Below, one piece after another: positions 3,437-9,390 of a stretch of DNA of 10,437 nt (positions within the stretch are counted from its first letter, which is position 1; every line of letters begins with the position of its first letter). The DNA comes from Candidatus Woesearchaeota archaeon (GTDB lineage Archaea; Nanobdellota; Nanobdellia; Woesearchaeales; DSVV01): contig JBDRKY010000082.1 in the NCBI GenBank assembly GCA_043813525.1, positions 1-10,437 on the forward strand, in the 5' to 3' direction. The position numbers and the translations under genes were made by a program. The notes beneath the pieces are model-generated. The model was not told the origin of the DNA. It saw nothing but the letters and a program-made list of their open reading frames with translations, and searched no databases.

Positions 3437-5332
3437 TCATTTCTTCTCCGCAAGATCAATAACACCATCTAATTTTTTTATCTCATTTATAATATCTTTC
3501 AATGCAATCGTATTATTCATCTCAACACTCAATGTGGTAACAACACTATCTTTCTTAGGTTTGGTGGTCACATTTTTAATATTAAGCCCGTAAGTAGCAA
3601 TAAGATTGAGAACATTTGCAAGAATACCTATCTTATCTTCAAGACTCAGATTTAATTTAATCACTGGAGATGTTCTCTGCTCTATCCATAAGACAGGCAC
3701 TTCTTTGTTCTTATCAAGAGAATATATATTTGGACAGTCTTTCTTATGCACTGTGATTTTTTTATCTTTTGTGTAAAAACCAATGATAGGATCCAATAGT
3801 TTAGGATTGCAGCATTTAGATATCTTTAACGGCGCTTTCTTGCCTACAATCTGGATACGCCTTGATAAATCAACAGGTAATTCTGATAAATCTTTCTTCT
3901 GCTGATCTATATCCATATTCAATATAGATTTTATCTTGCTTCTTGCCTTGTTGGTCTTTACAAATTTTAACCATTGACGGGAAGGCGTTGCATTCTTATT
4001 CACAATAATCTCTATGATATCTCCAGAATCAACAGCAGTCTCCAGAGGGACAATCTTATTATTGACAAGAGCCTTAGAACAATGATTGCCAATATTTGTA
4101 TGAACCATGTAAGCAAAATCAACAGGAGTAGAACCACCAGGCAAAGTAATAGGATCACCTTTTGGGGTAAAAACAACAATCTCATCCTCGAAAAGATCAA
4201 TCTTCAAAGTTTCAATGAATTCTGAAGAATTGCTTGCTAAATTTCTCCATTCCAACATCTGTTTCAGCCATGATATCTTCTTATCAAACAGTTTATCACG
4301 TTCAGTGCCATGATAACGCCAATGCGCTGCAACACCATCCTCAGCAATATGATGCATCTGCTCTGTCCTTATCTGAAATTCCAAAATCTTGCCTGAATCA
4401 GTAATCACAGTAGTATGCAAACTCTGATAACCATTTGATTTTGGCACAGAGATATAATCCTTGAACCTATGTGGAATTGGCTTATTATGGTCATGTATCA
4501 GACCTAAAGCAGCATAACAATCAGGAATAGTCTTTGTGATTATCCTAATAGCAATAAGATCATAAATCTCATTAAAGCCAACATTCTTCTTTTTCATCTT
4601 TTTATAGATACTATAGAAGTATTTTGCACGGCCAGACACATCAGCAGATATATTTTTATCATTAAGGCTTTTTTTTATTGATCTAATAAGATCTTGAGTA
4701 TGTTTTTCACGCTCATTTCTCTTTTCAGCAATCTTGCTTGCTAAAAACCTATAAACATCAGGCTCAATATACCTAAGGGATAAATCTTCCAACTCACCTT
4801 TTACCCTCCACATGCCAAGCTTATGAGCGATAGGAGCATAAATCTCTAAAGTTTCCTTTGACACGCGTTTCTGCTTATCCTTAAGCAATACTTTCAAAGT
4901 TCTCATGTTATGAAGCCTGTCAGCAAGCTTGATCAGCATAACCCTTATATCCCTTGCTGTTGCGATGAGAATCTTCCTTAAATTTTCTGAAGTATAATCT
5001 TCTTTATTATCAAAATGCACCTTGTCAATCTTTGTGACACCTTCAACAAGACCTGCTATCTCACTGCCAAAAATACTGTTGATCTTTTCAATGCTGATAG
5101 AAGTGTCCTCAACAATGTCATGAAGCAAAGCAGCACATATTGTAGCTGAATCTGCTTTCAGATCAAGAAGGATATTGGCAACTTCAATAGGATGTGAAAA
5201 ATACTCTTCACCACCAACTCTCTTCTGGCCTTTGTGAGCTTTTTCTGCCAAGACATATGCTTTCTTGATTAAAGCGACATCTGCTTTTGGATTATATCTT
5301 AATATTGTTTTAATAAGTTCAGATAATCTCAT
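3437..5332 (-). CDS. Long bifunctional RelA/SpoT homologue (Rel-type (p)ppGpp synthetase/hydrolase) of about 631 aa, with HD hydrolase, synthetase, TGS, CC and ACT domains
   Basis: The N-terminal HD domain carries HP...LLHDIVEDT. The synthetase domain has GRAKYFYSIYKKMKKK, EIYDLIAIRII, YQSLHTTV and EFQIRTEQMHHIAE. The TGS region reads VFTPKGD...LPGGSTPVDFAY.VHT.IG, there is a KCCNP Cys motif, and the C-terminus is ACT-like. The probable start is ATG 5332 (MRLSELIKT...); the listed 5338 codon is TTG. The TGA stop at 3437-3439 lies 17 nt upstream of the MAP2 ATG. Confidence 0.9.
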   Translation of the reverse strand: MRLSELIKTILRYNPKADVALIKKAYVLAEKAHKGQKRVGGEEYFSHPIEVANILLDLKADSATICAALLHDIVEDTSISIEKINSIFGSEIAGLVEGVTKIDKVHFDNKEDYTSENLRKILIATARDIRVMLIKLADRLHNMRTLKVLLKDKQKRVSKETLEIYAPIAHKLGMWRVKGELEDLSLRYIEPDVYRFLASKIAEKRNEREKHTQDLIRSIKKSLNDKNISADVSGRAKYFYSIYKKMKKKNVGFNEIYDLIAIRIITKTIPDCYAALGLIHDHNKPIPHRFKDYISVPKSNGYQSLHTTVITDSGKILEFQIRTEQMHHIAEDGVAAHWRYHGTERDKLFDKKISWLKQMLEWRNLASNSSEFIETLKIDLFEDEIVVFTPKGDPITLPGGSTPVDFAYMVHTNIGNHCSKALVNNKIVPLETAVDSGDIIEIIVNKNATPSRQWLKFVKTNKARSKIKSILNMDIDQQKKDLSELPVDLSRRIQIVGKKAPLKISKCCNPKLLDPIIGFYTKDKKITVHKKDCPNIYSLDKNKEVPVLWIEQRTSPVIKLNLSLEDKIGILANVLNLIATYGLNIKNVTTKPKKDSVVTTLSVEMNNTIALKDIINEIKKLDGVIDLAEKK

Positions 5333-5338
5333 CAACAA

Positions 5339-7868: not shown

Positions 7869-7950
7869 ATTACCTTTAATTTTTCTTTTGATCTTACACA
7901 GATAAATAAACAATAATATTCTATTAAAATAAAAAAAATAAAAAAAAGCA
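7869..7950. terminator. Bidirectional oligo-T terminator region between convergent genes
   Basis: On the + strand TTTAATTTTTCTTTTGATCTT follows gene D. On the - strand the complement of the A-runs at 7921-7946 gives TTTTTTTTATTTTTTTTATTTT immediately after the 4-TM gene stop at 7951. These are archaeal-style T-tract terminators. Confidence 0.45.
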
Positions 7951-8331
7951 TTAAAACAACAGTAGAAGTGGTGTTAATAGTAAACCCAACACAATAGTCA
8001 ATAATATCCCTACAATGATAGACAATACTGCCCATACTAACCATGTCAGAATTCCAGTTTTCCAATCATAGTTATACTTTGTTTTTACCAACCAAATACC
8101 TACAATCAAACCCAGAAAACCAGAGAGAGGAATTGCAATCCCAAATGCACCTAACAGACTAAGTACAAATCCAATAGCAACTACAATCAAATTTACATTA
8201 AATGCGGTTTTCCATGAAGTATCTGCTCCCTTCATAATCTTAACAGCCCATGTCAGCAGATATGCCCCTAAAAAAAGCATTATCACACTTGAAACAATGG
8301 TTGTTACCAATGCTGCTAAAACAAATGCCAT
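7951..8331 (-). CDS. Hypothetical integral membrane protein, 126 aa, with about four TM helices
   Basis: The start is ATG 8331, with SD AGAGGTG followed by 7 nt upstream. There are four hydrophobic segments separated by short loops (KIMKGADTSWKTAF and KTKYNYDWKTG). No recognisable family. Confidence 0.55.
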   Translation of the reverse strand: MAFVLAALVTTIVSSVIMLFLGAYLLTWAVKIMKGADTSWKTAFNVNLIVVAIGFVLSLLGAFGIAIPLSGFLGLIVGIWLVKTKYNYDWKTGILTWLVWAVLSIIVGILLTIVLGLLLTPLLLLF

Positions 8332-8457
8332 ATTTTTTCACCTCTTTTATTAAATAGTTTATTTAATGAAGTTAAAAGTTTATTAGTATAAATAATTTGT
8401 GGTATGCTTTTTATATAAACTTTAAAGATTAAGATTATTTAGAGTTCTTGATTATCT

Positions 8458-8628
8458 GTATGTAAAAAGTCTCCTAATAAGGAATATTATTACAGCCAGT
8501 TTTCATCATGGAAATCTTACAATTAAAATCATAAAGGAGCTCCATACCTTAATGTCTCACGACCTGTATTGTGATAAAAACAAACATAAGGCAGCAATAA
8601 TATTCTAAAAAGGAGACTTTTTACATAC
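8458..8628. mobile_element. MITE-like non-autonomous element, 171 bp, with 18-bp perfect terminal inverted repeats flanked by an 8-bp direct repeat (target-site duplication GATTATCT)
   Basis: GTATGTAAAAAGTCTCCT at 8458-8475 is the exact reverse complement of AGGAGACTTTTTACATAC at 8611-8628. The inverted repeat continues imperfectly for about another 20 bp (..GAATATTATTaCaGCC against ..AATATTATTgCtGCC). GATTATCT occurs in direct orientation at 8450-8457 and 8629-8636. There is a central GGAGCTCC palindrome at 8536-8543. The element has no ORF of its own. The right end lies inside the last 8 codons of tpiA. Confidence 0.55.
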
Positions 8629-9390
8629 GATTATCTCAATGAACTGAGTAGGATCCAAACCAGCACCACCTACAAGAAAACCATTGATATTCTTCTGCTT
8701 AATCAGTTCTGATGCATTATTTGGCTTTACACTGCCGCCATAAAGAATCCTTAACTGCATAGCTGTTGTCTGAGAATACATGTCTGTGAGCTGTTCACGT
8801 ATGAATGCATGAACCTCTTCTGCCTGTTCTGGTGTCGCTGTCTTGCCTGTGCCAATTGCCCAGACCGGTTCATATGCAATGACTAAAGCCTTGACCTGAT
8901 TTTCAGAAACATTCTTTAAACATGCTTTCAATTGTGTCAAAAGAACATCATTTGTCTTTTTCTTTTTCCTCTCTTCTTCTGTCTCACCAATGCAAAGTAT
9001 TGGATTAAAACCATGATTAAAAGCAGAGATTACTTTTTTATTTATCAGCTGATTCGGTTCTTTGAATATGTGCCGCCTCTCTGAATGACCTAAAATTACA
9101 TATTCACATAACTCCTTTAACATAATAGGAGATATTTCTCCAGTAAACGCTCCGCTGTCTTCACAATACATGTTCTGTGCACCTAATTTTATCTTTTCAT
9201 TCTTTATCTTTGATATTTCACTTAATGAGATGAATGATGGACAGATTAAAATTTCGTTTCCATCATTATCACCACTAAAAAAACCATCTTTAACTAATTC
9301 ATCAATTTTACCATTAAATTCATTAAAAAAATCAACAGCTTCCTTCACAGTCTTGTTCATCTTCCAGTTTGCCGCAATCAGATTATTCAT
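8605..9390 (-). CDS. tpiA: Triosephosphate isomerase, bacterial-type, about 261 aa from ATG 9390 (MNNLIAANWKMN...)
   Basis: The protein carries AANWKMN, GAQN, ILGHSERR, LCIGE, IAYEPVWAIGTGKTAT and YGGSV..N motifs. These are those of the bacterial/eukaryotic TIM type, not the short archaeal type with INYK and about 220 aa. GGTG lies 5 nt before ATG 9390. The ORF-track start at 9465 adds 25 non-homologous residues. The last 7 codons and the TAG stop (8605-8607) lie within the MITE-like element. Confidence 0.9.
   Translation of the reverse strand: MNNLIAANWKMNKTVKEAVDFFNEFNGKIDELVKDGFFSGDNDGNEILICPSFISLSEISKIKNEKIKLGAQNMYCEDSGAFTGEISPIMLKELCEYVILGHSERRHIFKEPNQLINKKVISAFNHGFNPILCIGETEEERKKKKTNDVLLTQLKACLKNVSENQVKALVIAYEPVWAIGTGKTATPEQAEEVHAFIREQLTDMYSQTTAMQLRILYGGSVKPNNASELIKQKNINGFLVGGAGLDPTQFIEIIVCKKSPF

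Follow-up and report, generated by a model that had tools for sequence, protein, structure and literature searches.

The window, by which we mean the whole stretch of DNA analysed, is a complete contig of 10,437 bp. On its minus strand lies tpiA, the gene for a bacterial-type triosephosphate isomerase (TPI), and the 3′ end of this gene overlaps a 171-bp element that is bounded by TIRs and flanked on both sides by a short target-site duplication (TSD). The features of the element and of its host gene, in order of position, are the following.

8435-8449, minus strand: displaced native tail of tpiA, AAG AAC TCT AAA TAA (KNSK*), intact and no longer translated
8450-8457: left copy of the target-site duplication, GATTATCT, 8 bp, direct-repeat family D1
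8458-8628: the whole element, non-autonomous, with TIRs, MITE-like, 171 bp, non-coding
8458-8475, plus strand: left TIR, GTATGTAAAAAGTCTCCT, a perfect 18-nt complement of 8611-8628
8482-8497: left arm of a sub-terminal imperfect inverted repeat, 16 nt, pairing with 8590-8605 (88% complementary)
8536-8543: palindrome, GGAGCTCC, near the midpoint of the element (8543)
8590-8605: right arm of the sub-terminal imperfect inverted repeat, pairing with 8482-8497
8605-8610, minus strand: codon F261 (8610-8608) and the TAG stop (8607-8605), encoded by the 6 nt that adjoin the right TIR on its inner side
8605-9390, minus strand: tpiA coding sequence, bacterial-type TPI, 261 aa, residues 1-254 native and residues 255-261 element-encoded
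8611-8628, minus strand: right TIR, AGGAGACTTTTTACATAC, 18 nt, read in the tpiA sense as V255-C-K-K-S-P260
8629-8636: right copy of the target-site duplication, GATTATCT, 8 bp

Several other genes share the window with tpiA. A full-length long RelA/SpoT homologue (RSH) of 633 aa (HD_4, RelA_SpoT, TGS, ACT) occupies 3437-5338 on the minus strand and has a syntenic counterpart of 632 aa in a related 166-kb contig; since long RSH enzymes are typically bacterial, the gene is probably an old horizontal acquisition. The plus strand between 5461 and 7868 carries a run of genes whose products, of 195, 268 and 212 aa, are small and either secreted or membrane-anchored; an 86-aa ORF may belong to the run as well, and the N-terminal segments are hydrophobic. 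Cysteines are abundant in the 268-aa protein, no Pfam family was found for the run of 195-, 268- and 212-aa proteins, and the order of the 268-aa and 212-aa proteins is conserved in the orthologous loci L015 and L016 (62% and 52% identity). Between tpiA and the 212-aa gene, on the minus strand (7951-8331), lies a gene for a 126-aa four-helix membrane protein, whose resemblance to DUF7473 is weak and sub-threshold (23.8 bits, with a cutoff of 27). This gene is absent from the syntenic loci L015, L016 and L019, where the gap between tpiA and the homologue of the 212-aa gene measures 9-63 bp, and the segment 7869-8434 (~570 bp) is a second lineage-specific gain, which adjoins the MITE-like element and lies outside its target-site duplication. 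The TATA-like TTTATATA of the 126-aa gene (~8411-8418), which is downstream of tpiA, lies outside the element and has apparently been kept.

The architecture of the element is that of two long arms around an unpaired centre. The two 18-nt TIRs are spaced 135 nt apart. When the right arm is reverse-complemented and aligned with the left one, the matches run 18/18, 26/30 and 34/42, with decay beyond, and the central ~90 nt has no arm-to-arm pairing. A preliminary description of this DNA had proposed a 171-bp element with perfect 18-bp TIRs and an 8-bp duplication, and we recovered the same coordinates and sequences; its inverted repeats extending imperfectly to ~40 bp agree with the 34 matches in 42. 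The palindrome that it placed at the centre exists close to the midpoint, but is not exactly centred. The GC content is 0.30 in the element, 0.33 in the window and 0.17 in the native intergenic DNA alongside. The element folds into a long hairpin, whose energy is -25.2 kcal/mol (z -5.8) for the DNA and -58.1 kcal/mol (z -7.6) for the RNA read in the tpiA sense. Six-frame translation of the element reveals no gene, the longest open stretch being 49 codons, and neither an Rfam search of 8300-8700 (E up to 1) nor a tRNA and tmRNA scan of the element gave a match.

Four calculations bear on whether such a structure could arise by chance. The TIR pattern, with three mismatches or fewer, is expected 0.01 times per window, and two matches were obtained in 0 of 200 shuffles. 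An inverted repeat of at least 18 nt appeared in none of 300 Markov-shuffled windows, and an inverted repeat of at least 12 nt combined with a TSD of at least 6 nt occurred at 0.003 per Markov-shuffled window (300 shuffles). In addition, the probability that the two 8-nt flanks are identical is 3.6e-5. A chance origin of the TIR and TSD structure is excluded, and a simple TIR+TSD detector returned the 171-bp element as the sole structure of its kind in the 10,437-bp window.

The host gene encodes a protein that is 100% identical to P0001 (NCBI MFH1439978.1), annotated as belonging to a Candidatus Woesearchaeota MAG. The Pfam TIM profile (PF00121) scores 311.8 bits over residues 4-254 of the 261, corresponding to profile positions 2-242 of 245, and the best solved relative, the TPI of Thermotoga maritima (1b9b, E 1.5e-74), is aligned to residue 253. 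The alignment of 16-17 TPI orthologues contains many invariant columns, with no frameshift or internal stop; its last conserved column is F250, and the tails of the orthologues past residue ~253 vary. We note that this is a bacterial-type TPI of ~250 aa, for which the next-best homologues beyond Woesearchaeota come from Elusimicrobia, Aquificota-like bacteria (Desulfurobacteriaceae) and Omnitrophica; the comparison suggests a bacterial ancestry for tpiA in this archaeal lineage.

The insertion point falls exactly between codons 254 and 255 of tpiA. Read in the tpiA sense, the junction is ...TTC ATT GAG ATA ATC / GTA TGT AAA AAG TCT CCT TTT TAG, where the slash marks the native end and the first element-encoded codon. 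The right copy of the duplication, on the minus strand, comprises the last 2 nt of codon E252 together with codons I253 and I254, and is followed by the right TIR (8628-8611), which supplies six codons (VCKKSP). The preliminary description had credited the right TIR with seven codons and the TAG stop; six of these codons do come from it, whereas the phenylalanine and the stop are provided by the 6 nt just inside. In all, the element overlaps the coding sequence by 24 bp, and four native residues (KNSK) are exchanged for seven (VCKKSPF). On the profile and orthologue alignments, the TPI barrel is untouched by the insertion, and since only the variable tail past the last barrel helix is changed, the effect on the enzyme would be nearly neutral. 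Because the two TIRs are identical, VCKKSP would be added to the host protein in either orientation of the element; an element turned the other way round would be read for 22 codons (VCKKSPNKEYYYSQFSSWKSYN*) before a stop, as compared with 7.

Removal of 8458-8628 together with one copy of GATTATCT joins ...GAGATAATC straight to AAGAAC..., and yields GAG ATA ATC AAG AAC TCT AAA TAA, which translates as EIIKNSK*. The closest orthologues end in IIKNSK (P0002 and P0004), IIVNSN (P0003) and IIKKSKK (P0005). At the nucleotide level, each codon of the restored end has its homologue in locus L019 (gaa ata att aag aat agt aaa taa) and in locus L021 (gga ata atc aaa aat agt aag tag). The element is absent from all five orthologous loci compared (L015, L016, L017, L019 and L021). 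L015 and L016 have the same order of neighbouring genes as the window, as far as their contigs reach, and on the short contig of L019 homologues of the window's Band_7 gene and of its 212-aa gene flank tpiA. The preliminary description had held that the insertion replaced the native C-terminus of TPI, and had pointed to the tpiA 3′ ends of relatives as the place to look; the restored EIIKNSK*, which matches P0002 and P0004, bears out the replacement, and the relatives agree with it, five of five lacking the element and the frame being restored with a single copy of the target. Because excision restores the orthologous end and five loci lack the element, it is, on the sequence comparison, a genuine insertion and not a conserved hairpin. 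The insertion event was probably recent, since no decay is seen in the TIRs, in the duplication or in the displaced tail and its stop codon over ~50 nt, a length that makes a weak clock.

The search for relatives of the element covered the contig and several large collections. There is no second copy in the 10.4-kb contig. The exact 18-mer of the TIR has 4 isolated matches in the GTDB representative genomes (596 Gb) and 10 in the JGI metagenomes, neither of which includes the source MAG, and a 16-mer of the TIR has 10 isolated matches in IMG/VR; none of these belongs to a copy of the element. The matches are single sites of only 16-22 nt, mostly in unrelated bacteria or viruses, and were set aside as chance. 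Within 6 kb of the TIR matches in GTDB, JGI and IMG/VR, no partner TIR was found with up to 4-5 mismatches allowed, and neither a cognate transposase nor an autonomous IS with matching ends was found at the TIR-match loci of the searched collections. A 17-mer and a 20-mer from the interior of the element have no match in IMG/VR, and blastn of the element against plasmids and phages returned nothing significant (E 0.2-0.5).

Three individual candidates were also rejected. The single archaeal hit of the blastn searches, on Thermococcus barophilus pTBMP1, falls on the AT-rich promoter of abiEi, upstream of the gene, and has no second repeat to pair with. A 16-nt inverted repeat in L010, around a chance match to the 18-mer, lies inside a 630-aa ORF on an unrelated contig. 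Within the window, the direct repeat D6 (7896-7923 versus 8580-8607, 79%), considered as a decayed copy, is an AT-rich 28-mer only, has no TIR, and was attributed to chance. These scans for copies and for a parent required exact TIR matches in collections that lie outside the other contigs of the source MAG. Of the prokaryotic MITE clusters surveyed, 97.4% are genus-specific (PMC11602168), so that a lack of copies in other taxa is to be expected and carries little weight. A survey of archaeal IS elements (PMC13343696) offered no DPANN-specific IS family information usable for assigning a parent.

The structural definition of a prokaryotic MITE calls for a length of 50-800 bp, TIRs of at least 10-15 bp and a TSD of 2-10 bp (PMC11602168). 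The element falls within this definition because of its size, its TIRs, its duplication, its lack of coding capacity, with no transposase, and its reconstructable empty site. We consider it very likely to be a MITE-type non-autonomous DNA transposon, known from a single copy. The name MITE further implies a family of many copies served by a transposase in trans, of which the element is at most a candidate member. The transposase, of the DDE type and encoded at another place in the genome, would bind the TIRs and mobilise the element; it would cut the AT-rich target with an 8-bp stagger, and repair of the cut would yield the duplication. Several families of IS make duplications of 8 bp, among them IS6, IS256, IS1595, IS66 and ISL3, and the length thus assigns the element to no family in particular.

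A different history, which we regard as unlikely, would begin with an autonomous IS that inserted into tpiA, generated the 8-bp duplication and subsequently lost its transposase gene in situ, leaving a single-copy solo remnant. The unpaired central ~90 nt is what would be expected from two IS ends joined together, and only one copy is detectable in the searched collections, although this last argument says little, as the searches were made outside the source genome. Against such a deletion derivative stand the undecayed TIRs, duplication and displaced tail, which fit poorly with a long two-step history, and the combination of a 171-bp length with extended sub-terminal pairing, which is typical of propagating MITEs.

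If the element is a mobile MITE-type transposon, its arrival may also have altered the tpiA transcript. Oligo-T tracts are archaeal termination signals, and in the tpiA sense T5 runs are present at 8611-8607, overlapping the new stop, and at 8580-8576. Judged from the letters of the DNA, the message may have gained oligo-T tracts and a 3′ hairpin of great stability from the element. That the host has gone on to co-opt them, with the hairpin and T5 tracts serving as a tpiA 3′ module (for termination, or for stability or processing) and with the VCKKSPF tail, more hydrophobic than the native one and Cys-containing, changing the behaviour of TPI, seems to us very improbable; were it true, a DPANN archaeon would have domesticated a MITE at one of the core genes of glycolysis.

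Metagenome assembly could in principle have manufactured the structure, for example by a fold-back or a mis-joined repeat, and the contig does come from a MAG. However, fold-backs occur at contig ends, and the element lies within the contig, with 1.8 kb between it and the nearest end; fold-backs give no clean 8-bp duplication, and removal of a fold-back would not restore an orthologous reading frame, which leaves an artefact or chimera with a very slight probability indeed. Scarcely credible is a native, conserved structural or regulatory hairpin of the tpiA 3′ end (a terminator or a small RNA), which would suit the very stable fold and the T5 runs after the stop codon, but which is missing from five of five orthologous loci, has no Rfam match, would not have 8-bp direct-repeat flanks, and is at odds with a KNSK* that stands intact beyond the left duplication and with a deletion that restores the orthologous frame exactly.

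As a MITE-type transposon, the element joins a populous class. A census of archaeal MITEs made in 2024 with MITE-Tracker counted 18,091 across 8,220 genomes, with 88.9% placed between genes and ~11% within them, and a Woesearchaeal genome, with 105 MITEs per Mb, has one of the highest archaeal densities (PMC11602168). The preliminary description had called MITEs of this kind rarely catalogued in small-genome archaea, a claim that fails because MITEs are abundant in archaea and the Woesearchaeal genome is among the densest (PMC11602168). The element is like the MITEs of that census in its size, TIRs, duplication, lack of a transposase, hairpin and GC content near that of the host (MITE GC tracks host GC, PMC11602168). 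It is unlike them in being a single known copy with no sequence relative in the collections searched, and the likeness is one of structural definition. What the element adds is one uncatalogued member of a class whose abundance in Woesearchaeota was already established.

The Sulfolobus SM-type and the Haloquadratum/Halobacterium MITEs are archaeal non-autonomous TIR elements that are moved in trans by resident IS transposases, and their parent IS families are known. These MITEs, listed in PMC10969869, have no sequence similarity to the element described here. Parallels for the position at the end of a gene come from bacteria. In Coxiella burnetii, every functional gene affected by QMITE1 or QMITE2 has the element at its 3′ end, the two overlapping by 1-50 bp (PMC5896051). 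Like the element in tpiA, with its overlap of 24 bp, the QMITEs run into functional housekeeping genes at their 3′ ends, provide the last codons and/or the stop with little change in protein size, and place a stable stem in the 3′ end of the mRNA (PMC5896051); unlike the archaeal element, they are bacterial, unrelated in sequence and documented as multi-copy families. It is called "not unusual" for a MITE to be fused in frame to a gene, and the Rickettsia RPEs are the example that goes furthest (PMC10969869). The RPEs are likewise palindromic elements (~150 bp) found in frame in metabolic genes whose protein folds tolerate them (PMC10969869), but they are usually read through as internal peptides, whereas the element in tpiA is read for 7 codons and then stops, so that it replaces the tail.

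In a reduced DPANN genome, the locus would present a clean case of a transposon that has inserted recently, with the "before" state (the intact displaced tail and its stop) and the "after" state legible in one and the same sequence. For annotation, it means that the deposited TPI protein carries seven residues of transposon origin. For the enzyme, it suggests that the C-terminal tail of a core glycolytic protein tolerates replacement, and for the organism, that this Woesearchaeote has been subject to active DNA transposition.
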